Source: Planctomycetota bacterium
GTDB taxonomy: Bacteria; Planctomycetota; Phycisphaerae; WQYP01
Direction of reading: 5' to 3'
Length of the DNA: 64,000 bases
NCBI GenBank assembly: GCA_021810145.1
Contig: JAJZJL010000003.1
Coordinates: 7,218 to 71,217 of the forward strand
Within the stretch, counting starts at the first letter, position 1. Each line of letters begins with the position of its first letter. Positions 6,678-46,548 of this stretch are shown piece by piece. The position numbers were made by a program, and so were the translations under genes. The notes beneath the pieces are model-generated. The model saw only the letters and a list, made by a program, of their open reading frames with translations, was not told the origin of the DNA and searched no databases.

Positions 6678-6700
6678 CACACCGTCCCAACGCGGATTCG

Positions 6701-10108: not shown

Positions 10109-10135
10109 ACAATTTGTTCCTTTCCAAACAAAGGG

Positions 10136-12202: not shown

Positions 12203-12251
12203 GATGATTGCAACTCCGAAACAAGATCAAATAAGTTCAAAACCCGTCGGG

Positions 12252-20751: not shown

Positions 20752-20818
20752 AGTCACTGGCCTTTCATGATAGATTTCAATTGGGTTTTCTCCCGGGTGG
20801 CGTCCGGGATGAAGGGTA

Positions 20819-28967: not shown

Positions 28968-30353
28968 TTAACCGGCAACGGGCACCAGTTCATAATGGTG
29001 CGGCACGGGCTTATTGGCCTTGAATTCGCGCTTTACAATGACGTTGCCAAGCTTATTCATAGCTTTAACCACACCGGCAACCGCTCGCTTTGCGGCGGGG
29101 TCATTTTCCGTGGTGACAGGCATGTTCGGCTTGATCCATCCCCAGTTTTCCAACATGGTTTGCACACCATGCCAGGCTACAAAATGGTTCTGGATTTCTT
29201 CCCAGACAATATTATTTACATGGTATGCCTGCCACAGCATCGGCGTGAAATAGCGGGAAAGGTTGATCCCCGCCGAGAGCTGTTGCGGCGTAAATTCACC
29301 GACTGATTTGCCATCAATCAGCAGATTGTAATGCGCTGCCGACAGGCCTTTGACCGTCAGCATTTCCCGATCCAATTGATGAGTAAAGCCGCAGAGTTTA
29401 TCAATCAGCGCCCCCACCGGATTGGTATATTTGGGATTCGGCTGCGGCGGCAGGAAGTAGCTCCATGACGGAAACTGCGGCCATTTTTCGTGCAGATCAA
29501 TAATGGGCATCGGCAGCGAGCCATCAAGTTGCGTCCAGGTCAGTGTGCCATTGGCTGATTTCAAACCGCTGATTTTGGTGTTCGCGGCGCGGGTCACGCT
29601 GCCGGAAGCGGCGTTGATGTTCACATTGGTAACGGTCGCCGGAGCACCCCAGGCTTTGAGCAGGGCCTGGGCCATCATCATTTCCGCCGCCGCACTGGGA
29701 TGAACGCGACCCGGAAAAATCTCTTTGGCGACGGCCGGATTGATCTTTTCGGCTTTTTTCAGCACGTCAACCATCGGCGTATTAAAATCGACATACAAGA
29801 GATGATTTTTCGCGGCCAGATGCTTCACAAAGGCATTGTAACGAAGCAGCACAGCGTTGTATCCGCCGGGAAATCCCATTTTTTGCGTTACATCGTCATA
29901 CGGACTTGTGCCCAGCAGCACAATGCGCACGCCCGGAAGATGGCGCTTCAGCGCCCGGATAATGTGCTCATAACCTGAGGTAAACGTGTCGTACACTTTC
30001 TTGTTGAATGGTCGATATTCGGCATCATTCATGGCCAACATGATGGTGACCACATTGGGCTTAAATGGATAAACATCACGTTTCAAACGGACATTAATCG
30101 GACCAGCCCAGCCGCCGCCCACGCGATCACCGCCTACGCCGGCATCGACAAACCGCACATGCAGCTTGGGGAACCGCGTTAAGACATAGGTTTGCACATC
30201 AGCGGGATAAAACCGCTGTTCGGTGATGCTGTCACCATAGAAACAGACGCGATCGCCGTTCTTAAGAAAGAACTTCTGTTTGGCGGCCATTGCCGGTGAG
30301 GCCAGCGCCAACAGCAGAAGCGACAGCGACACAAGAAAATACAGTGGTTTCAT
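28968..30353 (-). CDS. exported SGNH/GDSL-family hydrolase (esterase), paralog 1
   Basis: Signal peptide 'LLLLALASPAMA', block I 'FYGDSITEQ', 'GVGGDRV' and 'TIMLAMNDA'. A C-terminal extension of about 230 aa is of unknown type. Confidence 0.75.
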   Translation of the reverse strand: MKPLYFLVSLSLLLLALASPAMAAKQKFFLKNGDRVCFYGDSITEQRFYPADVQTYVLTRFPKLHVRFVDAGVGGDRVGGGWAGPINVRLKRDVYPFKPNVVTIMLAMNDAEYRPFNKKVYDTFTSGYEHIIRALKRHLPGVRIVLLGTSPYDDVTQKMGFPGGYNAVLLRYNAFVKHLAAKNHLLYVDFNTPMVDVLKKAEKINPAVAKEIFPGRVHPSAAAEMMMAQALLKAWGAPATVTNVNINAASGSVTRAANTKISGLKSANGTLTWTQLDGSLPMPIIDLHEKWPQFPSWSYFLPPQPNPKYTNPVGALIDKLCGFTHQLDREMLTVKGLSAAHYNLLIDGKSVGEFTPQQLSAGINLSRYFTPMLWQAYHVNNIVWEEIQNHFVAWHGVQTMLENWGWIKPNMPVTTENDPAAKRAVAGVVKAMNKLGNVIVKREFKANKPVPHHYELVPVAG

Positions 30354-30961: not shown

Positions 30962-32401
30962 TCAATGCCCCGCGGGGACAAGCTCATAGTGGCAGGGCAG
31001 CGGCCGCGATGCCTTGCGGGCATGATCCAGAAAGGCGTTACCTGCGGCATACGACGCTTGCTGTATCAGCGAATTGTCCAGCGCGATTGCGGCGGCGGGC
31101 ATCTGATGCTCTTCCAGCAACCAATGAGCGTGGTTCCTCGGATAGTTGCTCATGGGCAAAATACATTGCCGCCAGAAAGCAAACTCAAGCTGCACCTGCT
31201 GCCATATCAGCGCAAAGACACCATTGGCCTGTTGGAGCATTGGTGTGTTGTATCTGGCGAGATTCAGGCCCGCAGCCAAAGCAGTTGCGTTGAATGTGCC
31301 GATCGCCTGACCATCGATTTTCAACGTGTAATTGCCCGGCGTTAAACCCGTGATGGCCAGAGACTGGTCATCAAGTGATGCATAAAAATGCGAGCAGTGC
31401 AGCGCCAGAGCCACGGCCGGATTGGTGTAATCAGGGTTGTACAAAGGCAGATTGCCAATGCCCGTTGGAGGAAACTGCCAGAAGGCAGCGCAGTGGAGCG
31501 GCCACAACGGCATGGGCAGCGAGCGGTCCATTTGCGTCCAGGAGACGATGCCGTGCAATTTTTTGAGATTGCTTACACGGGTATGGACCGCGCGATTAAC
31601 GCGGCTGTCGCCCGCATCGATGCTGACTGTTGACACAACCGGTCCAGCTCCGAATCCCCGAAGCAACTGCTGCGCCATGATAAGCTGCCCGGCGGCGGCA
31701 GGGTGCACGCGACCGGGAATAATCTGACTTGCCAGGCTCGGATTAATCTCTTTTGCGGCTTTAATCGCGTTAACCAGCGGCGTATTAAAATCCACGCAAC
31801 GCAGCTTGTACTTCGCGGCCAACTTACGCACAAAGACAGCGTAGCGGCGCAACACATCGTTATAGCCGCCATGGCTGTCATCGAGTTTGTCAGTATGCGG
31901 GTGCAGCCAGGGCAGGTGCAGCGGAAAGCCGGGCTTCTGGGTTACATCATCGAATGCGGACGGCTCAATAAGCACAATTTTTACACCGGGTAAATGCGCC
32001 TCAAGCGAGTTGATAATATGAATGTATCCCTTGGCGTAGACGTTAAAAATTTTCCTGCTCCACGGGTGATAGCTCGCATCGTTCATGCCGAGCATAATGG
32101 TGACAACCGTAGGCTTAAACGGAAAGACATCGCGCTTGAGCCGCAGGTCGATCGGCCCGGCCCAACCACCGCCAACCCTGTCGCCGCCCACGCCGGCGTT
32201 TACAAATTTCAATTTGAGGTTGGGGTAGCGAGTTGTTATGCAGCTTTCAGTAAATGTTGTATACAACCGCTGTTCGGTGATGCTGTCACCATAGAAACAG
32301 ACGCGATCGCCATTCTTAAGAAAAAATGGATGTTTGGCGGCCATTGCCGGCGAGGCCAGCGCCAAGAGCAGAAGCGAAAGCAGAAAATACACTGGTTTCA
32401 T
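30962..32401 (-). CDS. exported SGNH/GDSL-family hydrolase (esterase), paralog 2
   Basis: Signal peptide 'LLLLALASPAMA', 'FYGDSITEQ', 'GVGGDRV' and 'TIMLGMNDA'. Collinear with paralog 1 and carries an extra insert ('LHLPWLHPHTDKLDDSHGG'). Confidence 0.75.
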   Translation of the reverse strand: MKPVYFLLSLLLLALASPAMAAKHPFFLKNGDRVCFYGDSITEQRLYTTFTESCITTRYPNLKLKFVNAGVGGDRVGGGWAGPIDLRLKRDVFPFKPTVVTIMLGMNDASYHPWSRKIFNVYAKGYIHIINSLEAHLPGVKIVLIEPSAFDDVTQKPGFPLHLPWLHPHTDKLDDSHGGYNDVLRRYAVFVRKLAAKYKLRCVDFNTPLVNAIKAAKEINPSLASQIIPGRVHPAAAGQLIMAQQLLRGFGAGPVVSTVSIDAGDSRVNRAVHTRVSNLKKLHGIVSWTQMDRSLPMPLWPLHCAAFWQFPPTGIGNLPLYNPDYTNPAVALALHCSHFYASLDDQSLAITGLTPGNYTLKIDGQAIGTFNATALAAGLNLARYNTPMLQQANGVFALIWQQVQLEFAFWRQCILPMSNYPRNHAHWLLEEHQMPAAAIALDNSLIQQASYAAGNAFLDHARKASRPLPCHYELVPAGH

Positions 32402-32508
32402 AAGGTCCTCCAGATGGTCCGACGAAAATCAATGACTGCGGTTTGCCCACCGACGGTACTGCGGGCGTAAAAGCTTTTAAACCGTCGAATCCGCCCTGTC
32501 AACCGGGG
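32265..32508. repeat. second copy of the conserved SGNH 5' segment
   Basis: See 30211..30460. Confidence 0.7.
32475..32502 (-). promoter_or_regulatory. candidate sigma70-type promoter of SGNH paralog 2
   Basis: On the minus strand, TTGACA (32502..32497), a 16-nt spacer, then TTAAAA (32480..32475). Confidence 0.3.
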
Positions 32509-32597
32509 CATCGATGCCAGGGTGACATCGGTGACATTTCTACTTCTTGACAACATGGCTTAAGTGGCCGAACGGCACATGCGGATTGACCGGACAA

Positions 32598-34151
32598 ATG
32601 GCCATTGATACCCTTATTGCCATGACCGCACTCCCGCCACCCTCATTGCATGTCCCCCGATGGCGACTATTGACAGCGTGGCTTTTTCTGTTCCTGATGG
32701 CACTTGCGATAGACCAGATATGGGTTCATCTCTGGCGGATTGTACCGATCGGTTACGCGACGACAAGGTTGACGGAACCCATTTCAAGCAATGGCGGAGT
32801 TAATTATGTGCGGGCGCTGAACCAATTGGCTTGCAAGGGGGTCACGGGTGGTAATAATGCGGCGGTGTTATTAATCAGGGCGGTGGGGCCCGGTCAGTTC
32901 CCGGAGCGGACTTGGTATGGCAAGAATATTTTACGACAACTGGATATGCCGCCATTCGCGCCTGGCGCGAGCCGGCTTATCTCGCTTTCCGACTGGATTG
33001 AGAAACACCCTCTACCGGCGAACTCGAGCCGCGACGCTCGGCGGCGCATGGAGTTGAGACTCGGCAGCGAACCGTGGACGGCGACAAACTATCCCGTGAT
33101 CGCACAATGGATACGAGCCAATAACCGGCCGCTTTTACTGTTGGCCCAAGCAACCAGGCGGCCACGCTACTATGTTCCCCTGGAGAGTCCGGACCACGGC
33201 TTGGTACACGCCCGAGTGCCCCTGCTCCGCCCTCTTACGCGCCTGACTTCGGTCGCGGCAATGCGCGGGATGTTGCGGCTTGGCCAGGGTAACATTGCCG
33301 GCGCAACGCGCTGGGCCAATCGAATCCATCGATTGGCGGTACTGGTCATGCAGGCTCCTGACGTTGTTTCATATCTTGTGGGACTGCGTTTTGAGAATAT
33401 TGCGATGAGGATGTTTCAGGCGGTGGCAAATTCGGGCAGGCTTTCCGTCAAGCAACTCGACGCCCTGTCTCATTCGGTCGAGAGCCTTGCTGAACTTCCA
33501 CCTCTTACGGAAGCCCTGAATGATCAACGTTACACCGGATTAAGCATGCTCATGATGCTCGACCAGAATGGTTTGATGATCCTTCGTATCCATCACGTTT
33601 CGCGCACGGAAAAGGAATTTGTGAACGCAATTTTTCCAATAGATTATGCGGCGATGATGCGGCGAGAAAACCGGATTTTCGATAAGGAGGTGGCGGCCGC
33701 GAAGCGGACAGACTTTCTGGAAGAATGCCGTGAGATGCAGCGACTCAAGAATGTCATCGATGGTTACGCTTCACCCCTTCGTGTCGCATTGAATCCCGCA
33801 GATATTGCAGTCGTGCTGGCGAATCCGGCTGCGGTTCACATTGCCAGTTACCGCCGGGGCGCGGCTGTGATCCGGTGTCTCACGGAGGTTGCCATCGCGC
33901 TGGCGCAATTCAAATTGGTGCATGGGAGCTACCCCGCCGCGCTGGCCGACCTTGTACCGGGCGAGCTTAAAAGCCCTCCCATCGACGCGTTCAGCGGAGG
34001 GCCGTTTCAATATGCCGTTACCAGCGACCGACGGGGCTTCCGGGTGAAGAGTCATGGGCCGCCGCCGGGCGTGGGGGGATGGAGGCTCAACGCCGATATG
34101 GCTCCATTTATTACCGCCCGAGGCGGGAACTGGCCGGCAGCGCAGAGGTAA
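32598..34151 (+). CDS. hypothetical membrane-anchored helical protein
   Basis: The long ORF starts at TTG 32547 in the track; the first ATG is at 32598. There is one TM segment ('LLTAWLFLFLMALAI'), a helical body and the C-terminal motif 'IDAFSGGPFQYAV...GFRVKSHGP'. No family was assigned. Confidence 0.4.
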   Translation: MAIDTLIAMTALPPPSLHVPRWRLLTAWLFLFLMALAIDQIWVHLWRIVPIGYATTRLTEPISSNGGVNYVRALNQLACKGVTGGNNAAVLLIRAVGPGQFPERTWYGKNILRQLDMPPFAPGASRLISLSDWIEKHPLPANSSRDARRRMELRLGSEPWTATNYPVIAQWIRANNRPLLLLAQATRRPRYYVPLESPDHGLVHARVPLLRPLTRLTSVAAMRGMLRLGQGNIAGATRWANRIHRLAVLVMQAPDVVSYLVGLRFENIAMRMFQAVANSGRLSVKQLDALSHSVESLAELPPLTEALNDQRYTGLSMLMMLDQNGLMILRIHHVSRTEKEFVNAIFPIDYAAMMRRENRIFDKEVAAAKRTDFLEECREMQRLKNVIDGYASPLRVALNPADIAVVLANPAAVHIASYRRGAAVIRCLTEVAIALAQFKLVHGSYPAALADLVPGELKSPPIDAFSGGPFQYAVTSDRRGFRVKSHGPPPGVGGWRLNADMAPFITARGGNWPAAQR

Positions 34152-34320
34152 GGAACGCAGGTCTTGCGTTGCGAGGAACGGCGCAATTAAGCGAAACGCG
34201 AAAAAGAGAATATGCCCAACCCAAGCAGTGTTCACTTGGTGACGCAAACTGCGATCATGTAATTGCCGGATATAGCGAGCCGCTTTGCCGAGGATGGTTC
34301 CGATAGTTAAAATTCGCGTC

Positions 34321-35448
34321 ATGTTGACGCGCATGTATGTGGATAATTATAAGTGCTTCGTAAATTTCGAGTGTAACTTTGCATCCAAGCAGTTAATTCT
34401 TGGCGCAAACGGGACTGGAAAGACAACGATTCTCGATGTACTTGCCACGCTGCGCGATTTCTGCATCCGTGGCGAGGCAATTGCGGACCGTTTTGGCGGG
34501 AGGTCGCGTACAAGATGGCAGAACCCAGCCGTGCCCGAACAGACATTTGAACTGGACGTCACCGGGAATAACGGAATCTATACGCTTCGCCTGGTGGTCG
34601 ATTCATGGGGCGTCCCGGAGCGGCCGCGCGTCATAACGGAATCCGTGAGTTATTCCGGAAAGCCAATTTTTCGGTTTGAGAGGGGTGAAGTTTTTCTATA
34701 CAACGATCAGCATGAAGAAAAGGTGAAATACCCCTTTGACTGGCATCGCTCGGCACTGGCAACGATCGCGGAACGCCGAGACAACCGAAAGCTTTGCTGG
34801 TTCAAGAACTGGCTGGGCGAACTGCTATACGTCAGCCCCGACCCCAGAAAGATCAGCGGGGTTGCGTCGCGGGAGTTGAAATACCCGGACCAATATCTGG
34901 AAAATTTTGCGGACTGGTTTCGACATCTCCGCCAAGAAACCGACGACCACGCATATATCAAGGATCTTACGGAGGTCATTGAGGGATTTTCCGCTATGCG
35001 TCTGGAGGATGCGGGCGAACACCGCCGAGAGATCAAAATTCGATTGGCCCCTTTCGGTGGCGACCGAAATGGAAAACCGATAACCGAATATCTGCTAAGT
35101 GAACTCTCTGACGGCCAGCGGGTGCTCATTGCGCTCTACGCCATTCTGCACTTTTCCGTCAAACCCGGCGCAACGCTGTGTTTTGACGAGCCGGACAATT
35201 TTATCGCGCTTGGAGAGATCCAAGCGTGGCTTACCAAAATCCTTGAACGTGCTGAGGATGTTGAGCCAGAATGTCAGGTTCTAATTGTCTCCCACCATCC
35301 GGAGCTTCTCAACCGCATGGCGTTCCAGAATGGGCTGCTACTCGATCGTCCGGACGGACGCCACGCCCGTTGTCGGCGCTTTGGCGATACGTTGCAAACA
35401 GGATTGACCGCCGCGGAACTAATGGCCCGGGGATGGGACAATGGGTAA
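34321..35448 (+). CDS. ABC/SMC-like ATPase of the AAA_21/AAA_15 (OLD / AriA / RloA-like) type
   Basis: 'MLTRMYVDNYKCF' N-terminus, then Walker A 'GANGTGKTT', signature-like 'LSDGQRVLIAL', Walker B 'LCFDEPDNF' and H-loop 'VSHHPELL'. The track start 34285 is TTG; the ATG at 34321 fits the family N-terminus. Confidence 0.7.
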   Translation: MLTRMYVDNYKCFVNFECNFASKQLILGANGTGKTTILDVLATLRDFCIRGEAIADRFGGRSRTRWQNPAVPEQTFELDVTGNNGIYTLRLVVDSWGVPERPRVITESVSYSGKPIFRFERGEVFLYNDQHEEKVKYPFDWHRSALATIAERRDNRKLCWFKNWLGELLYVSPDPRKISGVASRELKYPDQYLENFADWFRHLRQETDDHAYIKDLTEVIEGFSAMRLEDAGEHRREIKIRLAPFGGDRNGKPITEYLLSELSDGQRVLIALYAILHFSVKPGATLCFDEPDNFIALGEIQAWLTKILERAEDVEPECQVLIVSHHPELLNRMAFQNGLLLDRPDGRHARCRRFGDTLQTGLTAAELMARGWDNG

Positions 35449-35452
35449 GTGA

Positions 35453-35986
35453 ATGTCGCAAGTGATCCTGCTTTGCGAGGACGATCCGCAGGAACGGTTG
35501 GTTCGCTGTTATCTGGAGCAGTGCGGTTTCAATACGGCGGCACCGTATCTGCGACCGATTAACGCCAGCCGGATGGTCCACGGCGGAAACGTGCAGTGGG
35601 TGCTGCGCGAGTTTCCCAACCAGCTTCAGGCCTGTCGCAAACGCCACGCTGCGTTCGCGAATACACTGCTGATTGTCGTAGCGGATGCGGATGACTTTGC
35701 CGTTAAGGATCGCGAAAGGCAGTTTTGGGAGGTGCCACTGGAAAGCAATGCCGACGATCCGCTTGTGATACTGATTCCACGCCGCCATGTCGAAACGTGG
35801 ATACGCTCCGCTCTCGGTGATGCGGTTAATGAAACCGACGGCTACAAAACACCCAAGCCAGGGAAAAGTGACATCCGACTCGCCGCTCAGCGCATTCATG
35901 CATGGTGTCACAGCCAAGAGGAACCCGTCCCAGGGTGTGTACAGTCGCTGCGTGCGGCTTTACCGCTGTGGCGGAGAATCGGATAG
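35453..35986 (+). CDS. small Toprim-like / RloB-like (DUF4276-like) protein, partner of the upstream ATPase
   Basis: The ATG lies 4 nt after the ATPase stop. 'VILLCEDDPQERLVRCYL' resembles the 'CEGxxTE' strand of RloB/Toprim proteins, 'LLIVVADADDF' supplies a DxD, and 'LIPRRHVETWI' resembles the RloB 'NPCFELW' block. Assignment is by motif pattern only. Confidence 0.45.
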   Translation: MSQVILLCEDDPQERLVRCYLEQCGFNTAAPYLRPINASRMVHGGNVQWVLREFPNQLQACRKRHAAFANTLLIVVADADDFAVKDRERQFWEVPLESNADDPLVILIPRRHVETWIRSALGDAVNETDGYKTPKPGKSDIRLAAQRIHAWCHSQEEPVPGCVQSLRAALPLWRRIG

Positions 35987-35990
35987 CGTG

Positions 35991-36773
35991 TCATGGCTTT
36001 TCAGCTTCGATTTTTCCCAGCAAACGCAGCAGGCCATCAAGAATGGTCATCGGGTGCGGCGGGCAGCCGGGGATGAAGAGGTCAATGGGTACCACGCTGG
36101 CGGCACCGTTATGGACTTCGGGGTGGTTGATAAAGGGGCCGCCGGACAGCGCACAGGCACCGACGGCGATGACAATTTTGGGATCCGGCACGGCATCATA
36201 GGCCGTTTTCAGGGCTTGCTTCATATTTTCCGTTACCGGCCCGGTAATCAGCAGGCCATCGGCATGACGCGGAGAGGCGACAAAAGATATTCCGAAGCGG
36301 GACAAATCCCAGCCAATGGTGTTCAGCACGTTAACATCAGATTCACAGCCGTTGCAGCCGCCGGCACAGACCTGCCGCAGTTGCAGGCTGCGGCCAAAGA
36401 GCTTCCGCAATTTACCGTCCAGTGCGGCAGCCAATTTGAGTTCCTGCCCCGCATCAACAACAAGATCCGATGCCTGCCGCACGGTCAGGCGATAATCGCG
36501 CGAATAGGTTATCGCTTTTTCCGGACATGAATCGGCACAATCCGTACAGAACAGGCAGCGGCCCATATCCAGCTTTATGGCGCCATCAGCAATGGCAATC
36601 GCCTGCGTGGGACAGGCATCGGCGCATTGTCGGCAGGTATCCGGACATCGGGCGGCATCAAATATCGGCCGGCCACGAAATCGCGCCGGCATTTCCGGCG
36701 CCGGCGCGCCGGCATCGGGATAACGCATGGTGCGGTGACCCTGTTGAATACGGGTAATGAGCGTTTTTATCAT
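35991..36773 (-). CDS. fused 2x[4Fe-4S] ferredoxin (HycF/HyfH-like) + NuoB/HycG-like small subunit of a group-4-hydrogenase-related complex
   Basis: N-terminal half has 'CRQCADACP' and 'CLFCTDCADSCP'. C-terminal half has 'GGCNGCESD', 'GACALSGGPF' and 'IPGCPPHP' (NuoB/HycG cluster ligands). Confidence 0.8.
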   Translation of the reverse strand: MIKTLITRIQQGHRTMRYPDAGAPAPEMPARFRGRPIFDAARCPDTCRQCADACPTQAIAIADGAIKLDMGRCLFCTDCADSCPEKAITYSRDYRLTVRQASDLVVDAGQELKLAAALDGKLRKLFGRSLQLRQVCAGGCNGCESDVNVLNTIGWDLSRFGISFVASPRHADGLLITGPVTENMKQALKTAYDAVPDPKIVIAVGACALSGGPFINHPEVHNGAASVVPIDLFIPGCPPHPMTILDGLLRLLGKIEAEKP

Positions 36774-36801
36774 CGCATGTTCTCCGATGGATCAGCGGGA
36801 A

Positions 36802-38352
36802 TCATAAATCATGGCCGCAATACGAAAGACTGAAACTCTTGTTACACAGCGGAAAATCAGAAATCTGCTTTCCCCGCACCGCCATTGCGACGGCCGGCCA
36901 GTTATGAAACGATGGATCCACAATTTTATAACGTTCAAAACGGCCCTGAGCATCGGTCAGAGCCACATGACAAACCTGCCCGCGCCAGGCTTCCTGCAAA
37001 GTCACAACCAGGGACTCGGGTTGCGGGGCGGAGACTTCGGCCTGCAGTGCTCCGACCGGCAGGGCTTTCAGTTGATCCCGGAGAAACTGTATGGACCGTT
37101 GAATCTCCAGCCAACGGACATACGCCCGGGCAAATACGTCACCGCCGCGCCAGGTGGACACGGGAATATGGCTGAACTGATAAATCCCCGAAGGGTGATC
37201 ACGCCGCGAATCCATATCCACGCCGCAGGCCCGGGCCGCCGGACCCACCATGCCGAGTTCCGTTGCGGTTTCTTTGGAAACCGCACCAATGCCTTCAAAT
37301 CGGGCCATCACCGATGAGGTCTCCCACAACAGATTAATGGCCGCACGGGATTCGCGTTCGGCAACGTCCAGCCGCTTGAGCAAATCCGCGGCAAGCGACG
37401 CATCGATATCAAAGCCAACCCCGCCGATGCGCAGCAATCCACGACCAAATCGATTGCCGCAAAGCGCCGCGGTCATATTCAGAAAATCGCCGCGGATGCG
37501 CCCACAGAATGAAGCGGATGGCAGAAAACCGGCATCACCGGATAAGGCGCCCAGATCACCAACGTGGTTGGCCAGACGTTCAAGTTCCAGGGCAATTCCG
37601 CGGATGGCGGCGGCGCGCGGACTGATCTGGCAACTCCCCAGCGATTCGATCATTTGCGCGTAAGCGCAGCCATGGCCGATGGTGGTATCTCCGGCAAGTG
37701 TTTCGGCGTAATGCAACGATCGCTTATCCGGTCCGCCCCGCATTGCTCTTTCAACCCCACGATGCTGGTAGCCCAGAGCTATTTCCAGATGCAGTATGGT
37801 TTCGCCGTCGCACTGAAAACGGAAGTGTCCTGGCTCAATAACACCGGCATGAATCGGCCCGACGGCCACCTCGTGCACCTGCCCGCCGGTGATCTGATAA
37901 AAATCCATGACTCCCGCCTGCACGACATCCGCAGGGCCGCGATTCCAGGCATCGGCCCCGGCGCGATAACTGCGGTGAAAGCGCACCGGCTTGAGCCAGG
38001 GATGCCCCAGTGGCTTAACGCCAAATTGTTCGGCAATTTCACGCTCAAACAAATGTACCTGCGGGCATTGGGGTGTTAATGACGGGAACCCGTCGGCGGA
38101 TACGCCGGTCCGGGCGATATGCAGCCGGCCATGCTGATCATCGGCCAGCACCACATACAAGGAGATCTTAAAACTGTTCTCAGAATCCGTTGCGCCAAAA
38201 AGGGCGCAAACTCTGCGGCGGTCCCGCAGAGCATCAAGAATCGCCCCTTGAAACTGCGGCAAGGGCAGTTCGGGTATTGCGGATCGGGCGACAGGCTGCC
38301 CGCTGGATATTTCCGCCAATGACAGGTTGTGCGATGAAGCGGACAGACTCAT
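36802..38352 (-). CDS. NuoC-NuoD / HycE-like large subunit lacking [NiFe] cysteine ligands (Ehr-type)
   Basis: 'GPIHAGVIEPGHFRF', 'LGYQHRGVE' and 'GPAARACGVDMDSR' blocks. There is no CxxC pair anywhere in the protein. The L1 position reads 'LAGDTTIGHGCAYAQ' and the C-terminus reads 'FPLCNKSFSLSYCGHDL'. Confidence 0.8.
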   Translation of the reverse strand: MSLSASSHNLSLAEISSGQPVARSAIPELPLPQFQGAILDALRDRRRVCALFGATDSENSFKISLYVVLADDQHGRLHIARTGVSADGFPSLTPQCPQVHLFEREIAEQFGVKPLGHPWLKPVRFHRSYRAGADAWNRGPADVVQAGVMDFYQITGGQVHEVAVGPIHAGVIEPGHFRFQCDGETILHLEIALGYQHRGVERAMRGGPDKRSLHYAETLAGDTTIGHGCAYAQMIESLGSCQISPRAAAIRGIALELERLANHVGDLGALSGDAGFLPSASFCGRIRGDFLNMTAALCGNRFGRGLLRIGGVGFDIDASLAADLLKRLDVAERESRAAINLLWETSSVMARFEGIGAVSKETATELGMVGPAARACGVDMDSRRDHPSGIYQFSHIPVSTWRGGDVFARAYVRWLEIQRSIQFLRDQLKALPVGALQAEVSAPQPESLVVTLQEAWRGQVCHVALTDAQGRFERYKIVDPSFHNWPAVAMAVRGKQISDFPLCNKSFSLSYCGHDL

Positions 38353-39788
38353 GGCCGCACCTCCATAAATGTCTGCGCCTGATGCAGCAGGTGAGACAGG
38401 AACGGCGGAATATGCACTCCCAGCATCAATACAAGAAGACAGGACAGTATCAGCGGCAAGCCGGTCAGCAGCCCATCGCGGTATATGTTCCCGGATTGTT
38501 TTCGCGGCAGAGGCCGTCCGAGCACCACGGTCAGTACGGTTCGGCCCATACCGATAAACACCAGCAGCAGCAGCAGGAGAAACAACCCGCCAATGAGAAA
38601 CAAATGGGCGGAAAAGGCGGCGTTCAAAATGGTAAACAGGCTCACAAACGGTCCAAACGGCGGCGAGCCGGTAATCGCCAGAAAGCCGAGCATAAAAACG
38701 GTGCCCGACAAAGGCAGCCGCCGCATTGCACCGTGAACATCATCGGTGCTTTTACTGCCGTAAGAGCGGTGAATATTGCCGGCGGCGAGAAACAGCATGC
38801 CTTTGGTCAGAGCATTATTGATCATTTGCAGAATCGCGCCAAAAAGTGCCGGGCCTCCAATGCCCGCACCCAGCGCCAGAATTCCCATTTGCTCCACACT
38901 TGAATACGCCAACATGCGTTTGATATCTTTCTGGCCCAGCACAAATACCGCCGCCACGGCCATGGATAGCAGTCCCATGCCTATAAGCAGATGACTCGTG
39001 TAGGTCTGCAGGCCGCCGGCAATGCAGACGCGATCGACGCGTAAAATTGCCAGAAATGCCAGACTCGTCAAGCCTCCCGCCAATAAAGCGCCTACCACAC
39101 CCGGCGCTTCGCCATACGCATCGGGCTTCCAGGTGTGCATCGGCGCCAGCCCCATTTTGGTGCCGTATCCGACCAGTAAAAATACAAATGCGATTTTAAG
39201 CCAGACCGCATTATCCGCTCCCGCATGCCGCACCAGATGTGAAAACAGCAACGTCGGATGCGGGTTATTGGCCAGTGAAGCGTAGACCAGAAAAAATGAA
39301 CCCAACAGCGCCAGCGCAATGCCGACTGAACTTAACAGCAAGTACTTCCAGGTGGCTTCTATGGAAAGCGGCGTGCGATTGAAATAAATCATCGGGGCGG
39401 TGCTCAGAGCGGTGGATTCTATGGCAATCCACATCAATCCCAGTTGCTGCGAGCACGTTACCAGCGTGGCACCGGCGAGAAATATCAGAAGGCACGGTAT
39501 TAACACCCGATTGGACCGCTCGGTTCGATAGCGCAAATAACCGACGATATACATTGAACAGATCAGAAACAATGTGCTGATTAGCAGCAGCGTCAGTTTT
39601 CCCGGCGGGTCCAGTGCAACCCAGCCACCCCATATCGGTGCGGCAGGCACAATCAGAACCGTCAGCACTGCCGCAAAATGCAGGCTCGCCGCCAGCGGCA
39701 TAATCCATGGGCGCACCGTGTTGGAAGTAATGGCTCCGGCTGCAAGAGCCGCAAGAAGCGGAATGAAAATAAGTATCGGCAAGAACAT
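38349..39788 (-). CDS. NuoN/HyfF/MnhD-like antiporter-type membrane subunit
   Basis: 479-aa polytopic protein with 'KMGLAPMHTWKPDAYGEAP' and 'KRMLAYSSVEQMG' proton-pumping-subunit blocks. It overlaps the next gene by 4 nt (ATGA). Confidence 0.8.
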   Translation of the reverse strand: MFLPILIFIPLLAALAAGAITSNTVRPWIMPLAASLHFAAVLTVLIVPAAPIWGGWVALDPPGKLTLLLISTLFLICSMYIVGYLRYRTERSNRVLIPCLLIFLAGATLVTCSQQLGLMWIAIESTALSTAPMIYFNRTPLSIEATWKYLLLSSVGIALALLGSFFLVYASLANNPHPTLLFSHLVRHAGADNAVWLKIAFVFLLVGYGTKMGLAPMHTWKPDAYGEAPGVVGALLAGGLTSLAFLAILRVDRVCIAGGLQTYTSHLLIGMGLLSMAVAAVFVLGQKDIKRMLAYSSVEQMGILALGAGIGGPALFGAILQMINNALTKGMLFLAAGNIHRSYGSKSTDDVHGAMRRLPLSGTVFMLGFLAITGSPPFGPFVSLFTILNAAFSAHLFLIGGLFLLLLLLVFIGMGRTVLTVVLGRPLPRKQSGNIYRDGLLTGLPLILSCLLVLMLGVHIPPFLSHLLHQAQTFMEVRP

Positions 39789-39794
39789 GCTGGT

Positions 39795-40436
39795 TTATTC
39801 CTTCAAGGCTGTAAGCTGTCGGGTATCCAGGGATGAAAAGGCTTCATTGATGTGATTGAGGATAATACTGACCACAAAAATGCCCACAAATAAATCCAGC
39901 AGAATGCCTAATTCCACCAGAAATGGCACGGCCGCCAGCAGCAACATGCCGAAAATATAAATTCCATTTTCAAGAATCAGATAACCGATGACCTGCGTAA
40001 TGGCTTTGTACCGTGTGGTTAACAGCAAAAATCCCGTGAGCACCGTGGAAAATGACGCGGGAATAATCAGCGCGGCGATGCGCGTCTGAATCATGGGCAG
40101 ATATGCGGCAAAAGTAATGGACAAAGCTGTTCCCATCGCGCCCAGCAGCATGGTGGGCAAAAAGCCGATCAGCGGTTCAACCTCGCGCTTGATCTGCGCA
40201 TCGCGCAGAGCTTTGTGCAGCATCTGCGGAATCAACAGGCCCTTAATCGCGGCCGTTACCGCCGCCACAAAGATAATCATCACGTCAATGCGCTTTTCCA
40301 GAAGCAACGGCAAGGCGCTTAAAATAACACCCTGTGCGGCTGCAGAGTAAATAAGGGACCTCATGCGGCTGACGCCGAGCATGAACAGGTTCAGCAGCAG
40401 CACAATAACCAGTGGTGTATTAATCGACCAGTGCAT
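39795..40436 (-). CDS. HyfE-like small membrane subunit
   Basis: 213 aa with about 7 hydrophobic segments. Position and size match HyfE in hyf-type operons. Confidence 0.65.
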   Translation of the reverse strand: MHWSINTPLVIVLLLNLFMLGVSRMRSLIYSAAAQGVILSALPLLLEKRIDVMIIFVAAVTAAIKGLLIPQMLHKALRDAQIKREVEPLIGFLPTMLLGAMGTALSITFAAYLPMIQTRIAALIIPASFSTVLTGFLLLTTRYKAITQVIGYLILENGIYIFGMLLLAAVPFLVELGILLDLFVGIFVVSIILNHINEAFSSLDTRQLTALKE

Positions 40437-40439
40437 GAT

Positions 40440-41351
40440 CTACCTCACCATCAGAACAAAACCGAAACCGCATAACAGGCTTGCCGCCGCCAGCAGCGTG
40501 GGCACATGCCGCATCTGCAGGCGAGCCATAAATGATTCCACCGTCCCTATTACGCCGGCCATGGCAATTAACTCGACGGGAAACAGCACCCAGTCCACCC
40601 CGGGCACGCCGGCATGAAACGGCACCAGCAGATGTAAAACCAGAGCGCTTAGCACAAGCAGCTTCATCGCCGAGCCATATTGAATCAGCCCCAGCAACGG
40701 GCCGCTGTTATCCAGCACCATAACCTCATGAATCATGGTTAATTCCAGATGCGTATTCGGATCATCCACGGGAATCCGGGAATTTTCCGCCAGCAGCACA
40801 ATGAATAATCCGGCGGCAGCCAGCAATACGGGTGCCTCCGGCCGATGCGCCAGCGGTGCCAACAGCATCGGCGTGAGACTGACACTGCCGGACAGGCGAA
40901 CCAGAACCAGTAGTCCCAGGAGAACGGCGGCCTCGGAAAGGCAGGCAAAAGTCATCTCCCGCGCCGCCCCCATTGCTTCAAAGGATGATCCGGTATCCAA
41001 CGCGGCGGATGTAGTGAAAAAACGCGCCAATCCGAACAGATATACAAACAGAATTAAATCACCGGTAAAGTGAATCGGAGCGGCGAACGGCCCAAATGGC
41101 ACCAGCAACCCCGCCAGCAGCGTGGCCGCCAGCGTTACCACCGGTGCCGCCTGAAATACCCATGTGGTGGTGGTGCTGATAACCATGCCCTTGCGCAGCA
41201 ATTTGTAAATGTCATAATAGGGCTGCAGCAGCGGCGGTCCTTTGCGCCCCGCGAAAACCGCCTTGGTTCTGTTTATCACACCGGGCAGCAGCGGCGGCAT
41301 TGCAACCAGCAAGCCGATGTGAATCAGTGGATTTATGATATTCTCAAACAT
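40440..41351 (-). CDS. NuoH/HycD/HyfC-like membrane subunit
   Basis: 303-aa polytopic protein with 'VFAGRKGPPLLQPYYDIYKL' (the NuoH/HycD N-terminal loop block) and 'ENSRIPVDDPNTHLELTM'. Confidence 0.8.
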   Translation of the reverse strand: MFENIINPLIHIGLLVAMPPLLPGVINRTKAVFAGRKGPPLLQPYYDIYKLLRKGMVISTTTTWVFQAAPVVTLAATLLAGLLVPFGPFAAPIHFTGDLILFVYLFGLARFFTTSAALDTGSSFEAMGAAREMTFACLSEAAVLLGLLVLVRLSGSVSLTPMLLAPLAHRPEAPVLLAAAGLFIVLLAENSRIPVDDPNTHLELTMIHEVMVLDNSGPLLGLIQYGSAMKLLVLSALVLHLLVPFHAGVPGVDWVLFPVELIAMAGVIGTVESFMARLQMRHVPTLLAAASLLCGFGFVLMVR

Positions 41352-41393
41352 GGGTCACCTTACAGCGCGTATCCGCCGGATTTTCGCACAACC

Positions 41394-43400
41394 TCAAAAG
41401 CCAAGCGCCAGCAACAGCAGCAGCAGTATTGCCAGCATATAAGCCAGATACATATTGACCGGCTTGTTCTGCAGTGGTCTTAATCGCGCCAGCAATCGCC
41501 GCGTTAAGGCAAAGCAGGGAATTAATCCGCGATCCAGCACCACATCGGGAACATCGCGAACAATTTCCATCGGCTGCGGACAATAGCGCGGCACGGGTAA
41601 TTCAGCATGCGTATTGGGAATCATCCACGAGAACATCTGCGCCAGCATTCGGGAAAAGGACGCCCCGGTGTACTGCATCCGCGATGAGGTTCGGGCGCAG
41701 GCACAACTCCAGGTGGGACGCCTGACGGCGGCCCGGGTTTTTCGCACGGCCCAGAGTACCGAAACAATTGCCGCTGCCGCCAGCAACAGCACCGCATTTA
41801 CGATTGCCATTTCAAGTAAAGGTGCCAAGGCTCCAATTGAACCGCCGGCAGTCGTCGCCCGCGGCGCCCAGTCGTGTATTGCGCGGGCAAGAAATGGCAT
41901 TGTAACGTCGGGAAATAAGGCCATCGCGCAGCATCCGGATGCCAGAATTCCCATGGGCAGAAGCATTGCGGCGCCCGGATCATGCGCGTGACTTATTTGG
42001 TCTGAACGCTTATTACCCAGAAACACCGAACCGGTTAATTTCACGAAGCCTGCCACCGCCAATGCCCCGGTTGCGGCCAGAGCGCCAGCCGCCAGTGAAA
42101 TCCAGACCAATGTACCGCCCTGTGGCACCGTCGCGGTGCGCAGCAAACCCAGATAGATCAGCCATTCGCTTAGAAAGCCGTTCAACCCCGGCAACCCGCA
42201 GATCGCCAGAGCACCCGTAAAAAACAGGATGGCGGTAATCGGCATTTTCGCCGCCAGTCCCCCCAGAGAATCTATTTTCCGCGTATGCGTGGCGTGCAGC
42301 AGGTTGCCCGCTCCCATAAACAGCAGAGGCTTAAATAAGCTGTGATTAAGAACATGGAACAACGCTCCGCCCAATCCCAACACAATAAGATCCGGACGAT
42401 TGACAGATCTGCCGATCAGGGCCAGGCCCAGGCCCATGCAGACAATTCCCATGTTCTCAACACTGCTGTACGCCAGCAGTCGCTTGTAATCGTTCTGGCA
42501 AACCGCAAAAATCACTCCCACCACCGCCGATCCGGCTCCGAGAATCAACAACGTCAAACCCCACCATAGCGGCGGCGCGGTCATTGTTTCACCGATACGC
42601 AGGAGGCCATAAATTCCAATGTTCAGCATTACCCCGGAAAACAATGCCGAAACATGGCTTGGCGCATTGGCGTGAGCACCGGGGAGCCAAACATGCAGCG
42701 GCATAATTCCGGCCTTTAATCCAAAGCCCACCAGAGCCAATATAAACATTGCCGCCGCCATTGCCGAAGGCACCGAGCCATGAAGCGTTATCCACAAATC
42801 AAACGATCCCGTCGTAAGGCGCATCAGTACAACCATCGCCACCAGCGCAATTATTCCAATGTGCGCGGCAATAAGATAAATCCAACCGGCCGCATGAACG
42901 CCTGGGTCATGATCTTCCGTGGTAATGAGAAAAAATGCCGCCAGAGCCATGACTTCCCATGCCATCAGAAACAGCACGCCATCACGCGCCAGCACCACCA
43001 TCATCATTGCGGCGTTCATGATTCCCCAGCACAATCGCAGCTTGCGTCCATTGCCGGGATGCCGGTTCTGTTTCCAATACTCCATGGCGTAAATGGAACC
43101 TGCTATGGAAATGCCCAAAACAGGCATAAGAAACAGAGCGGTTATGCAATCCAGCCCGACGCCAAACCTGCCCCATGGCAACGACCAGGGCCAGGTCAGG
43201 GTTTGAATCCGGGATCCACTTGAGACAAACATCAGCAATGCCGCGCCACCGAGAAGTGTGGCCAGCAGGTTCAAGAGCATCGCAATGCGTTGTCCCGTCA
43301 TGCCGCGGCGGCTGAAAAACAAGCCCGGCACACCCGAAAGGGTCATGCAGAAAACGGATGCCAGAGTTATATATAATGACATGTACATATCAAAGTTCAT
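41394..43400 (-). CDS. NuoL/HyfB-like antiporter-type membrane subunit (copy 2)
   Basis: 668 aa with 'KAGIMPLHVWLPGAHANAPSHVSAL', 'KRLLAYSSVENMG' and 'HSLFKPLLFMGAG'. Confidence 0.8.
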   Translation of the reverse strand: MNFDMYMSLYITLASVFCMTLSGVPGLFFSRRGMTGQRIAMLLNLLATLLGGAALLMFVSSGSRIQTLTWPWSLPWGRFGVGLDCITALFLMPVLGISIAGSIYAMEYWKQNRHPGNGRKLRLCWGIMNAAMMMVVLARDGVLFLMAWEVMALAAFFLITTEDHDPGVHAAGWIYLIAAHIGIIALVAMVVLMRLTTGSFDLWITLHGSVPSAMAAAMFILALVGFGLKAGIMPLHVWLPGAHANAPSHVSALFSGVMLNIGIYGLLRIGETMTAPPLWWGLTLLILGAGSAVVGVIFAVCQNDYKRLLAYSSVENMGIVCMGLGLALIGRSVNRPDLIVLGLGGALFHVLNHSLFKPLLFMGAGNLLHATHTRKIDSLGGLAAKMPITAILFFTGALAICGLPGLNGFLSEWLIYLGLLRTATVPQGGTLVWISLAAGALAATGALAVAGFVKLTGSVFLGNKRSDQISHAHDPGAAMLLPMGILASGCCAMALFPDVTMPFLARAIHDWAPRATTAGGSIGALAPLLEMAIVNAVLLLAAAAIVSVLWAVRKTRAAVRRPTWSCACARTSSRMQYTGASFSRMLAQMFSWMIPNTHAELPVPRYCPQPMEIVRDVPDVVLDRGLIPCFALTRRLLARLRPLQNKPVNMYLAYMLAILLLLLLALGF

Positions 43401-43415
43401 TCCACATTACAATCA

Positions 43416-45434
43416 TTAACGCCCCATGATGCGCGTCACAATACTGGCAACCGGAATCAGCGATGCCAGCAGCACAAACAGCACCAGAACGATATACAGC
43501 AGATATTCCTGTACGCTGCCCTGTTGCACCCGTCGCACCGGAACCAGCATTCGCTTCAAGCGGTCCCATCCGGTAAACGCCGCACGGTCGGTAATCAGGT
43601 CCGGAATATGCGTTTGCCGGTCGATCGGTTCCGCAAAAAGTTTCTCCGGGACCGAGCCATGCGTTACGGGGCGAGCAATCCACCGCAACAATCCCAGAAG
43701 CATTTCGGCAAAGGAAGCGGCGGTGTATTGCATACGGCTGCTTGGGCGGGCATAAGCGCACGCCCATGTCGCAGCGCGCGGTGAGACGGCATGACGCCGT
43801 GTTGCCGGCAGTGCCATAATCAATAACACGATCACGATAACCGCGGCAAAGCCGGTGGAAACCACGCTCAGTGTTTGCCAGGGCAGCGCCGATGCCAGAC
43901 GATGGGCCATCGTCACATCGCCGGCCCACGCCGCCACCGCATGTCCCAGCGGCAGCACCACGATAACCGGCGCAAGACCAATCAGGGCACACACGCCCGC
44001 GAGAACCACCATCGGCCCGATCATGCTGATCGGCGATTCGTGTGCTTTCGTCGGAAGATCGGTGCGAGCACTACCCAGAAATACGCTTCCAAATACTTTT
44101 ACAAAACACGCCACCGCCAAAGCTCCAACCGCTGCCAGCGCTCCCGCTCCGAAAGCCACTGCCGCCCAGCCGCCCGCAGTGGCGTTTGCCGCCGGGGTCA
44201 GCAATCCGACGTACACCAGTAATTCACTGATGAAACCGTTCAATGGCGGCAATCCGCAGATGGCAATGGCACCAACCAGGAACAGCCCCGCACTCCATGG
44301 CATGCGCTTGGCCAGAGACCCAAGCGAATCGAGTTCCCGCGTACCGGTGGCGTGAACCACCGATCCCGCGGAAAGAAACAGCAGCGATTTGAACAAGCCG
44401 TGGTTCCACACATGCAGTAAACAGCCGGCCATTCCCAGCACAACAAACACCGGGGCGTGCAGCGATTTGCCGATCATGGCCAACCCCAATGCCATGAGAA
44501 TAATGCCGATATTTTCAATGCTGTGATAGGCCAACAGGCGCTTGATGTCATGTTGCCCCAGCGCCAAGATCACCCCCAGCAGAGCGTTAACGGTACCAAG
44601 TGACAGAATCACAACGCCCCATACCGCCGGCGGGTTGGGTAGCAGTGTCAATATGCGAAGCAAACCATATATTCCTATTTTCAGCAGCACACCTGAGAGT
44701 TGCGCTGAAATATGACTTGGCGCATTGGCGTGCGCCCCGGGCAACCAGAAATGCAGGGGCATAATCCCGGCCTTAAGACCAAACCCAAATAGCGCTAAAA
44801 GAAATATTGCCGTCTCCAGACCAATGCCGGTTGCGGCTGGAACCGGCGTAAGCTGAAAAGTCCCCGACGCCGCATGCAGCAATGCAAACATCGCAAATAA
44901 TGCCAGCGTGCCAATATGGGTGGCGACAAAATACACCCAGGCCGCCTGCCGGCATTCGGGTTTGTGGTCTTCGGTGGCAATGAGAAAAAAACTCGTCAGA
45001 GCCATGATTTCCCAGGCCAGCAGAAAAGCCAGCGCGCCGTACGCCAGTGTTACCATCACCATCGAGGCAATCAGCAGGCCATAAAGGAATCGCAATTTTC
45101 GCCCGGTTGCCGGGTGTTCCGCCTGCCGCCAATACCCCTGGCCATAAACAGAGCCGGCTGCTGCCAACACAAATATCAGCAGCGTAAAGAATGCCGATAG
45201 AGCATCCATACGCAAATGCAAAGCAACACCAGGCCATATCCCCGGAAGTGAAGTCATGCGTACATGTCCACTGATCAGGGCCAGCAATCCACCGATGAGG
45301 CCGGATACAGAACCCAAAAGCGTCAGCATTGTGGCGACAGTTTGTCCCCAGCCAGCGCGTCGCGGCACCGCCAACCCCGGCAGCCCGCTGATGGCCATGA
45401 GCGTGCAAGCCAAAAGTGTCAGAGACATTTCCAT
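43416..45434 (-). CDS. NuoL/HyfB-like antiporter-type membrane subunit (copy 1)
   Basis: 'KAGIMPLHFWLPGAHANAPSHISAQ', 'KRLLAYHSIENIG' and 'HGLFKSLLFLSAG'. The ATG at 45434 (MEMSLT...) is preceded by GGAG; the track start 45500 extends upstream. Confidence 0.8.
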   Translation of the reverse strand: MEMSLTLLACTLMAISGLPGLAVPRRAGWGQTVATMLTLLGSVSGLIGGLLALISGHVRMTSLPGIWPGVALHLRMDALSAFFTLLIFVLAAAGSVYGQGYWRQAEHPATGRKLRFLYGLLIASMVMVTLAYGALAFLLAWEIMALTSFFLIATEDHKPECRQAAWVYFVATHIGTLALFAMFALLHAASGTFQLTPVPAATGIGLETAIFLLALFGFGLKAGIMPLHFWLPGAHANAPSHISAQLSGVLLKIGIYGLLRILTLLPNPPAVWGVVILSLGTVNALLGVILALGQHDIKRLLAYHSIENIGIILMALGLAMIGKSLHAPVFVVLGMAGCLLHVWNHGLFKSLLFLSAGSVVHATGTRELDSLGSLAKRMPWSAGLFLVGAIAICGLPPLNGFISELLVYVGLLTPAANATAGGWAAVAFGAGALAAVGALAVACFVKVFGSVFLGSARTDLPTKAHESPISMIGPMVVLAGVCALIGLAPVIVVLPLGHAVAAWAGDVTMAHRLASALPWQTLSVVSTGFAAVIVIVLLIMALPATRRHAVSPRAATWACAYARPSSRMQYTAASFAEMLLGLLRWIARPVTHGSVPEKLFAEPIDRQTHIPDLITDRAAFTGWDRLKRMLVPVRRVQQGSVQEYLLYIVLVLFVLLASLIPVASIVTRIMGR

Positions 45435-45534
45435 AGCGACTCCAATTTTCGGCGGGACCTCAGGGCCACGCGACCAGGCGGCCCTCCCGCTCGAAAGCAT
45501 GCATCCGGGTTATGCACAACCCGCGGGCGGAAAA

Positions 45535-46275: not shown

Positions 46276-46548
46276 CTCCTTAGGACAACATCGTACATTA
46301 TCGACATTTTGTCCACAAAAGTCCAATAGAGAGAAATATTGCATATAGCAAGATATAAAATACATATTACAGACAATAATTTCCTATAACGATTATTCGC
46401 TTGCATGAATACATGATGCGATTTTTAATGACTCAGACATGTTGCCAACCGAGACAACGCAGTGTCAAAGTCGTCACTACGCGATATTTTCAGTGTCAAT
46501 TATGACATTGAATTATAATTTCAAATTGAAAAATAAAGCCAAAAATCA

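Follow-up and report, generated by a model that had tools for sequence, protein, structure and literature searches.

A two-gene module of an ABC ATPase and a small predicted Toprim-fold protein, with a plausible defence role, in a Planctomycetota genome

The 64,000-nucleotide (nt) stretch analysed here, referred to as the window, comes from a Planctomycetota bacterium of the Phycisphaerae (lineage WQYP01; assembly GCA_021810145.1, contig JAJZJL010000003.1, positions 7,218 to 71,217 of the forward strand). It carries two adjacent genes on its forward strand. Gene 1 (34321-35448, +) encodes a 375-amino-acid (aa) ABC ATPase of the AAA_21 ('OLD-ABC') type, and gene 2 (35453-35986, +) encodes a small, 177-aa Toprim-fold protein that is a predicted metal-dependent nuclease. 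We consider it probable, with some reserve, that the two form an accessory ABC-ATPase/mini-Toprim module of the HEC-01 / Mad3-Mad4 type, in which an ATPase would control a Toprim nuclease. HEC-01 is the 'Hma-embedded candidate 01' of PADLOC, a pair of an ABC ATPase, HEC-01A, and a TOPRIM protein, HEC-01B (bioRxiv 10.1101/2024.01.29.577857). The window pair is thus of a known but functionally unproven kind, for which a defence role is plausible.

The sequence strings on which the initial annotation of the pair had relied were all recovered in the map of open reading frames (ORFs) and by direct translation, as was the short gap between the genes. The gene 1 stop codon ends at 35448 and the gene 2 ATG begins at 35453; the junction (35446-35455, +) consists of the TAA stop, the four nucleotides GTGA and the ATG. 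Given the 73-bit AAA_21 match, the many homologues of gene 2 and the conserved motifs, both are real genes rather than chance ORFs. The motif residues are invariant or almost so throughout the gene 1 and gene 2 families.

The same locus is present on contigs from other samples that are approximately 98-99% identical to the window, and these clarify the start of gene 2. In the near-identical strains (L081-L084, L089-L091) an upstream ATG (window position 35441) is open, gene 2 begins 12 nt further 5' and encodes 181 aa, and it overlaps gene 1 by 8 nt. The window has a C-to-T change (CGA to TGA) at the third codon of this longer form, which closes the upstream start. Translation of gene 2 must therefore begin at 35453 in the window, and the protein is four residues shorter. 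An 8-nt overlap is also the commonest layout in distant related loci. Given the 4-nt gap here and the overlaps in both near-identical and distant loci, the description of the genes as translationally coupled is a fair one.

The start of gene 1 is ambiguous, with candidates at TTG 34285, ATG 34294, ATG 34321 and ATG 34333. Gene callers applied to the identical contigs use ATG 34294, which yields a 384-aa protein, and the alignment of homologues and of the AAA_15 profile begins at 34321. The 170-nt spacer 5' of gene 1 includes a promoter-like sequence, TTGCCG-17-TAAAAT (34285-34313, +), which is a weak consensus match only. Three such sites were seen in the scanned region, compared with 1.2 expected by chance, and at the level of sequence the match is no evidence of function.

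Gene 1 is readily assigned. In a profile search it scores 73.1 bits against Pfam AAA_21 (cut-off 27; expect value (E) 5.5e-20), with residues 26-331 aligned to positions 4-304 of the 304 in the profile, and its N-terminus, which includes the string VDNYKCF, is of the AAA_15/SMC_N type. Across 50 homologues with 58-85% identity, invariant residues occupy every motif expected of such an ATPase. These are the Walker A motif or P-loop GANGTGKT (34402-34425, +; G28, N30, G31, G33 and K34), the Q-loop glutamine Q74, the ABC signature LSDGQ (35104-35118, +; S263, G265 and Q266), the Walker B motif and D-loop TLCFDEPD (35173-35196, +; D289, E290, P291 and D292), and the H-loop VSHHP (35287-35301, +; S324, H325, H326 and P327). 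Judged by its motifs, which form a complete catalytic set, gene 1 is a catalytically competent ABC ATPase.

The AlphaFold2 (AF2) model of gene 1 has a predicted local distance difference test score (pLDDT) of 86. It has a beta insert of six strands that separates the two halves of the head, and a long coiled coil is absent. In Foldseek searches the model matches Rad50 heads best (E 7e-13), followed by Septu/retron PtuA, RecN and SMC proteins, over a range of 1e-9 to 7e-13. Gene 1 is, as modelled, a compact head of the Rad50/SMC kind that carries a beta-rich insert. The AAA_21/AAA_15 assignment made initially therefore stands, both because the profile match is above threshold and because the model is a Rad50-like head.

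Among the defence-system models of PADLOC, HEC-01A (PDLC04180) matches gene 1 at E 9.9e-20, aligning residues 2-335 with profile positions 3-326 of 382, and five further HEC-01A models also match; several of these models cover nearly the full length. Two other PADLOC names were considered and rejected. The top AriA model shares its length and coordinates with Pfam AAA_21 (PF13304), and this match is therefore nonspecific; the remaining AriA models cover only residues 1-42 or 259-330. The mad3 match (E 8.6e-17) is generic, because a second window ORF matches mad3 better, at E 4.8e-33. This second ORF is probably the ABC transporter at 22366-24369 (-), the sole other ABC-type protein of the window. 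The NCBIfam MAD3 model aligns only with the first 60 residues of gene 1, at 50 bits (cut-off 420).

Two cyanobacterial plasmids carry distant relatives of gene 1, with 28% identity. On the conjugative Dolichospermum plasmid CP070234.1, the relative (76681-77790; locus L088) lies beside a VapC toxin-antitoxin pair. Downstream of it is only a 51-aa ORF, and it is without a Toprim partner.

Gene 2 required comparison at the level of its family. Searches of Pfam, NCBIfam and PHROG returned no family for the window protein, whose sole profile match is to PADLOC HEC-01B (E 1.2e-3, 16.9 bits, residues 45-121). A word-indexed search returned 102 full-length homologues, none of them named. An exhaustive search expanded the family to 1,567 clusters at 50% identity (E <= 1e-3), or 1,132 clusters at E <= 1e-10. 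Species-representative genomes hold at least 560 loci. Almost all members are about 180 aa long. The effector had been called unusually short, and the residues 'ED' in place of the usual 'EG' had been treated as an oddity. Neither description survives the comparison: a length of about 180 aa is the family norm, the HEC-01B and DUF4276 profiles themselves span 192-219 positions, and C-E-D is a trait of the whole family.

Conservation and profile matches were examined in 123 diverse family members with approximately 30% identity. E9 and W116 are invariant in this set, and L7, D10, D78, A79, D80, R87, P109, R111, E114 and T115 are at least 90% conserved; within a closer set of homologues, D78 and D80 are invariant. 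The family is recognizable by two signature motifs, L-C-E-D and I-P-[KR]-R-x-[IV]-E-T-W. The corresponding strings of the window protein are LLCEDDP (35468-35488) and LIPRRHVETWI (35771-35803), and between them lies IVVADADD (35672-35695).

The profiles that recur across these members point in one direction. HEC-01B matches about 40 of the 123 (best E 2.9e-8), and the PADLOC models PDC-M31B and mad4 match 36 and 19, respectively. Weak matches to DUF3226 (PF11536; best E 2e-6) and DUF4276 (PF14103; best E 2.4e-5) were each seen in 29 members, and to RloB (PF13707; best E 0.0015) in three. When family consensus sequences were scanned, HEC-01B was matched at E 9e-6, DUF3226 at 21.8 bits (gathering score 27) and DUF4276 at 18.4 bits (gathering score 30.2). 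The alignments of the consensus with the two DUF profiles are co-linear from the N-terminal Glu motif through the DxD region. No DUF4435 or AriB profile matches the window protein or is among the listed matches of the family, and there is no Toprim_OLD profile match. The earlier judgement that gene 2 could not be assigned to a named family is thus borne out, the family falling under the gathering scores of both DUF4276 and DUF3226.

The AF2 model of gene 2 (pLDDT 94.4; predicted template modelling score 0.91) has strands (E) and helices (H) in the order E3-8, H11-23, E33-37, H46-66, E71-76, H84-91, E104-107 and H113-120, followed by two C-terminal helices. As an order of elements along the sequence, this is the four-strand alternating strand/helix arrangement of the Toprim core. 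It places the conserved Glu past strand 1, the DxD past strand 3, and E114-T115 at the opening of the helix past strand 4. In the window, Glu9-Asp10 at the end of strand 1 (35477-35482, +) would take the position of the Toprim catalytic glutamate. Conservation and the model together mark out Asp78-Ala-Asp80 as a DxD directly past strand 3 (35684-35692, +) and Arg111-x-x-Glu114-Thr115-Trp116 past strand 4 (35783-35800, +).

Searched against the PDB with Foldseek, the model has 6nk8 as its top match (an OLD Toprim; E 8e-3, probability 0.9), followed by 9i2f/9lm3, 6njw, 6njx and 6p74. The best set comprises OLD C-terminal regions (6nk8, 6njw and 6njx), the retron Eco2 RT-Toprim protein and Thermus OLD. 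Flavodoxin-like, receiver and low-molecular-weight phosphatase folds are among the lower matches, and nothing was found in a Foldseek search of viral structures.

The OLD protein of Burkholderia (Bp) provides a guide to a possible active site. In this enzyme E400 and D455/D457 bind metal A, whereas E404, T506 and E508 serve metal B, and T506 and E508 sit on the first helix past the Toprim core (PMC6755086). The order of acidic residues in the gene 2 family is the same as that in Bp OLD. By analogy, we propose that E114 and T115 of gene 2 are equivalent to the metal-B ligands of OLD. On its sequence, gene 2 appears to carry the acidic set of OLD/RNase-M5-type two-metal nucleases, Glu9(-Asp10), Asp78-x-Asp80 and Glu114(-Thr115), and may thus be a nuclease. 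With the model taken into account, we take gene 2 to have a Toprim fold and to be a distant sister of DUF4276, DUF3226 and HEC-01B, outside every curated family. The Toprim/RloB/DUF4276-like nature suggested for it initially gains from this comparison: each test is weak, and profile, fold and motif position agree.

The two genes behave as a unit. A homologue of gene 1 lies directly 5' of gene 2 in 78 of 80 related loci, and the other two loci end at a contig edge. This adjacency, with overlap as the commonest arrangement, confirms the tight coupling described at first. The identities of the two proteins to those of the window co-vary (r = 0.86, 71 loci), and the pair is inherited together. When 1,170 flanking ORFs were clustered, only gene 1 and gene 2 were conserved (74 and 61 loci, respectively) and the next cluster occurred in six loci. 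Across the 80 loci no third gene is conserved beside the pair, and the flanks differ in nearly every one.

The pair has a patchy distribution. Its hosts are found in Planctomycetota, Acidobacteriota, Proteobacteria, Cyanobacteria, Latescibacterota and Chloroflexi, and most of the family comes from uncultured Planctomycetota and Acidobacteriota of soil and freshwater. Acidobacterial copies share 68% and 58% identity with the two window proteins, compared with 53% and 56% for a copy from Tepidisphaeraceae. That the acidobacterial copies are nearer to the window's than the Tepidisphaeraceae copy indicates horizontal transfer.

Close relatives provide a second view of this mobility. Convergent with gene 2, with stop codons only 4 nt apart, is an operon for a hydrogenase-like/Mrp-like membrane complex (35991-45500, -). 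In three relatives in which the last gene of this operon is 84-85% identical to that of the window, the operon is kept, other genes lie beyond it, and there is no gene 2. In one of them (L086) 29 aa of gene 1 survive as a remnant (residues 71-99; 65% identity, E 9e-9) at 13261-13347, on the minus strand in locus orientation. The remnant is on the expected strand, 2.5 kb past the operon. Given the absence of the pair from three close relatives, one of which has a gene 1 remnant, we conclude that the pair has been both gained and lost. Because the entire left flank differs in the three relatives, the edges of the insertion cannot be placed cleanly. No repeats flank the pair and G+C content does not shift, region 32000-37000 has no Rfam match, and the sole tRNA is 16 kb off.

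Looking across these data, the pair is an accessory, self-contained and horizontally mobile two-gene module. The accessory status proposed in the initial annotation is upheld by the patchy distribution, the variable context and the absence from three close relatives. Separately, in L086 the interval between the operon and the remnant holds an AlbA_2/HATPase_c_4 gene and a ParA/CbiA-like gene, and the site may be a variable hotspot.

As had been noted at the outset, the pair stands among unrelated metabolic genes beside a hypothetical gene. The latter is a 534-aa ORF directly 5' of the pair (32547-34151, +) with a weak nSTAND1 match (E 0.0015). It occurs in near-identical contigs only, and is missing from the 80 related loci and from the three close relatives. 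We considered this ORF as a third component and rejected it, as it is present in 0 of the 80 loci and has no family beyond the weak nSTAND1 match. On the other side of the pair, the hydrogenase-like operon encodes, besides NuoH and several antiporter-like subunits, a NuoC/D fusion and a NuoB-like protein joined to a 4Fe-4S dicluster domain, and it is conserved in the Phycisphaerae relatives. A PTS-EIIA/HTH_17 regulator (45535-46365, -) lies at its upstream end.

Elsewhere the window encodes an ABC transporter, RuvB and RuvA (approximately 9 kb from the pair), a GH2 glycosidase, two SGNH hydrolases, a KdpD kinase, a fucose-permease-like protein and an adenylate kinase. The hydrolases are tandem paralogous secreted SGNH/GDSL proteins of 461 and 479 aa (28968-30353 and 30962-32401, both -) with long C-terminal extensions. 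A probable Kdp potassium-uptake cluster occupies 5967-14030 (-). Its KdpD (6704-9376) matches solved KdpD structures, and the sizes of the ORFs beside it, taken on size only, fit KdpE, KdpC, KdpB and KdpA. Residues 269-551 of a 728-aa ORF (19315-21501, -) match the L-fucose:proton symporter; the N-terminal extension of about 270 aa could reflect an over-long ORF call. Weak PADLOC matches to mad1, mad8 and Csa3 elsewhere in the window are probably to generic domains.

How might such a pair work? Analogy with PARIS, OLD/Gabija and Mad3-Mad4 suggests that the ATPase encoded by gene 1 would bind the small nuclease encoded by gene 2 and hold it silent. ATP-dependent sensing of an invader cue, such as a phage protein or nucleic acid that is foreign or damaged, would activate or free the nuclease. 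The freed nuclease could cut DNA or tRNA and in this way stop the infected cell or the invader. Complex formation, the nuclease activity of gene 2, its substrate, the trigger and an anti-phage role are all parts of this scheme that we infer from the comparisons above.

Several observations weigh against an ATPase-controlled defence nuclease. Defence genes are not enriched among the 124 immediate neighbours of the pair in 31 related loci, or in the rest of the window. This survey had a small sample and crude ORF calling; within it no Pfam family occurred more than twice, approximately six neighbours had a PADLOC match at E <= 1e-10, and nine PADLOC families were each represented in one gene. 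The window itself is housekeeping and metabolic in content. Given mixed neighbours, few and single PADLOC matches and a metabolic window, we see no defence-island signal. Lack of enrichment near defence genes was among the outcomes that the initial annotation had named as counting against its own proposal, and it is what we found. Most Hma-embedded candidates were likewise reported to be without a defence-island signal (bioRxiv 10.1101/2024.01.29.577857), and the window pair agrees with them. HEC-01, which of the named candidates comes closest to the window pair, gave no protection against the phages tested in Escherichia coli (bioRxiv 10.1101/2024.01.29.577857). In view of the neighbours, which show no enrichment, and of the failure of HEC-01 to protect E. 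coli, the defence or abortive-infection role that had been assigned to the pair has the standing of a proposal.

Other points concern gene 2 and the mobility of the pair. The Foldseek scores of gene 2 are weak (E 8e-3 to 0.16, probability 0.5-0.9, template modelling score 0.37-0.47). The window protein is without a Pfam match at E <= 1, and the matches of the consensus to the DUF families stay below gathering scores. A sequence-profile search of the PDB with alignments of 45 and 123 members returned noise only (a receiver domain at E 1.1 and PCNA at E 0.03). Finally, tblastn with the family consensus found no match in 72,556 plasmids or 50,697 phage genomes, and no vehicle for the mobility of the pair is identified.

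The occurrence of the pair alone in unrelated, mostly housekeeping contexts, with no defence-island signal, would also suit a selfish addiction module of the toxin-antitoxin kind, in which a nuclease toxin is restrained by the ATPase, loss is costly and there is no dedicated anti-phage role. We regard this as unlikely. It would accommodate the patchy, horizontally spread distribution and the lack of defence by HEC-01 in E. coli. In MADS, moreover, deletion of mad5 needs loss of mad2 or mad3, from which it appears that an ATPase of this type can join a self-toxic activity. Counter to this, the decayed gene 1 remnant in one relative implies that loss is tolerated, and the plasmids searched, a common home of addiction modules, yielded no match to the family. 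Many abortive-infection systems are themselves toxin-antitoxin-like, and to this extent the two readings overlap.

A housekeeping DNA repair or recombination pair, comparable to Rad50-Mre11/SbcCD or RecF-RecR, seems to us very unlikely. The best structural matches of gene 1 are indeed to Rad50, RecN and SMC heads. RecR is a Toprim protein and the partner of the ABC ATPase RecF, and to this precedent can be added the housekeeping neighbours, with ruvA and ruvB about 9 kb off. However, the pair is missing from three close relatives that have the adjacent operon, its phylogeny conflicts with taxonomy and its flanks differ, and Rad50-like matches are generic to defence ABC ATPases, with PtuA ranking alongside. 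We give equally little credence to the idea that gene 2 is no nuclease, being instead a non-catalytic adaptor or a phosphatase- or receiver-like alpha/beta protein, with the ATPase as the effector. The weak Foldseek scores, the flavodoxin-like, receiver and phosphatase folds lower down, the receiver domain found with the family profile in the PDB (E 1.1) and the fact that no curated threshold is passed are what would be expected in that case. Yet the top-ranked folds are specifically OLD-type Toprim domains, and the conserved acidic residues lie exactly past strands 1, 3 and 4, just where OLD and RNase M5 have theirs. In addition, all of the recurrent profile matches (DUF4276, DUF3226, RloB, HEC-01B, Mad4 and RT-Toprim) are to the Toprim-like group. 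The distribution data and the conserved acidic set thus make both the repair and the non-catalytic explanations the less likely ones.

Within the preferred interpretation, an ATPase-controlled Toprim nuclease, a bolder version can be put forward tentatively. The pair may be a stand-alone, PARIS-like immune system in which a compact ABC sensor licenses a minimal Toprim nuclease of about 20 kDa, outside defence islands. If so, current Pfam and defence-finder models would largely miss it, and it would be the first functional HEC-01/DUF4276-type pair to act alone.

The partnership of an ABC ATPase with a Toprim protein, seen in OLD, Gabija, PARIS, retron effectors and Mad3-Mad4, is a recurring design in bacterial immunity. 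The smallest pairs of this kind, those with a DUF4276-like Toprim protein of approximately 180-200 aa, are without demonstrated stand-alone activity. The family described here is a sizeable mini-Toprim sister family that escapes Pfam and NCBIfam, is tied strictly to its own ATPase lineage and has spread horizontally among environmental phyla. With a profile of its own, more than 1,000 clusters of 'hypothetical protein' would gain an annotation, and the pair is a compact candidate for studying the control of a minimal Toprim nuclease by an ABC ATPase. We suggest the labels 'AAA_21-type ABC ATPase' and 'DUF4276-like Toprim-fold protein (predicted nuclease)', and that the defence role be marked as putative.

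The pair can be compared with several known systems. The OLD family (classes 1-3, exemplified by P2 Old, Gabija GajA and the retron RT-Toprim protein) resembles the pair in that an ABC ATPase works with a Toprim nuclease. OLD and Gabija cut DNA, and the OLD Toprim domain is the best structural match of gene 2, with the same order of acidic motifs. Unlike the window pair, OLD is a single polypeptide with an extra helical domain that carries K562. We rejected membership in OLD/Gabija, as ATPase and Toprim protein have a gene each, both here and in all 78 loci that show the two, the listed members of the gene 2 family are all about 180 aa, and no UvrD/GajB helicase or reverse transcriptase is a conserved neighbour.

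PARIS shares the split of ATPase and Toprim protein into two genes and is the best mechanistic template. In this system AriB, a Toprim nuclease that cuts tRNA, is set free by AriA once AriA has sensed a trigger (PMC11464382). The proteins differ in build: AriB is about 35 kDa and has DUF4435, whereas gene 2 encodes about 20 kDa without a DUF4435 match, and AriA is about 55 kDa with helical and coiled-coil inserts, whereas gene 1 has 375 aa and a beta-rich insert. Membership in PARIS was rejected on the absence of a DUF4435/AriB match for gene 2 and of any AriA-specific match beyond AAA_21.

DUF4276 (Mad4) and RloB are Toprim domains (PMC12065111). Together with DUF3226 they resemble gene 2 in profile size (192-208 positions), in their co-linear weak matches and in having an AAA_21/AAA_15 ATPase as partner. 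The pair could be placed in none of these families: the window gene 2 has no RloB match and only 3 of 123 members match weakly, which argues against RloA/RloB, and for DUF4276/DUF3226 the window protein has no match and the consensus scores are too low. Mad3-Mad4 is again an ABC-type ATPase beside a small DUF4276-type Toprim protein, here within MADS, an eight-gene methylation-associated operon. In Pseudomonas aeruginosa mad3 and mad4 are each required for phage resistance by MADS, and the mad5 methylase can be deleted only when mad2 or mad3 is deleted as well. MADS differs in having a methyltransferase, a kinase and Mad6-8, none of which lies beside the window pair. Membership was rejected, as the mandatory Mad6, Mad7 and Mad8 and the methylase are neither conserved across the 80 loci nor present within approximately 10 kb of the window pair, an interval that holds the SGNH hydrolases, a glycoside hydrolase, RuvAB, a transporter and the hydrogenase-like operon.

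HEC-01 differs from the pair in its setting, as the window pair is not embedded in Hma, and is itself without demonstrated defence activity. PADLOC would probably not call the window pair HEC-01, the HEC-01B match of gene 2 being only E ~1e-3 (17 bits). In architecture the two are alike: a gene for an ABC ATPase that has a beta-rich insert comes first, and a separate gene for a TOPRIM protein of about 200 aa comes second. The HEC-01A match extends over nearly the full length of gene 1, and about one-third of the gene 2 family members examined match HEC-01B.

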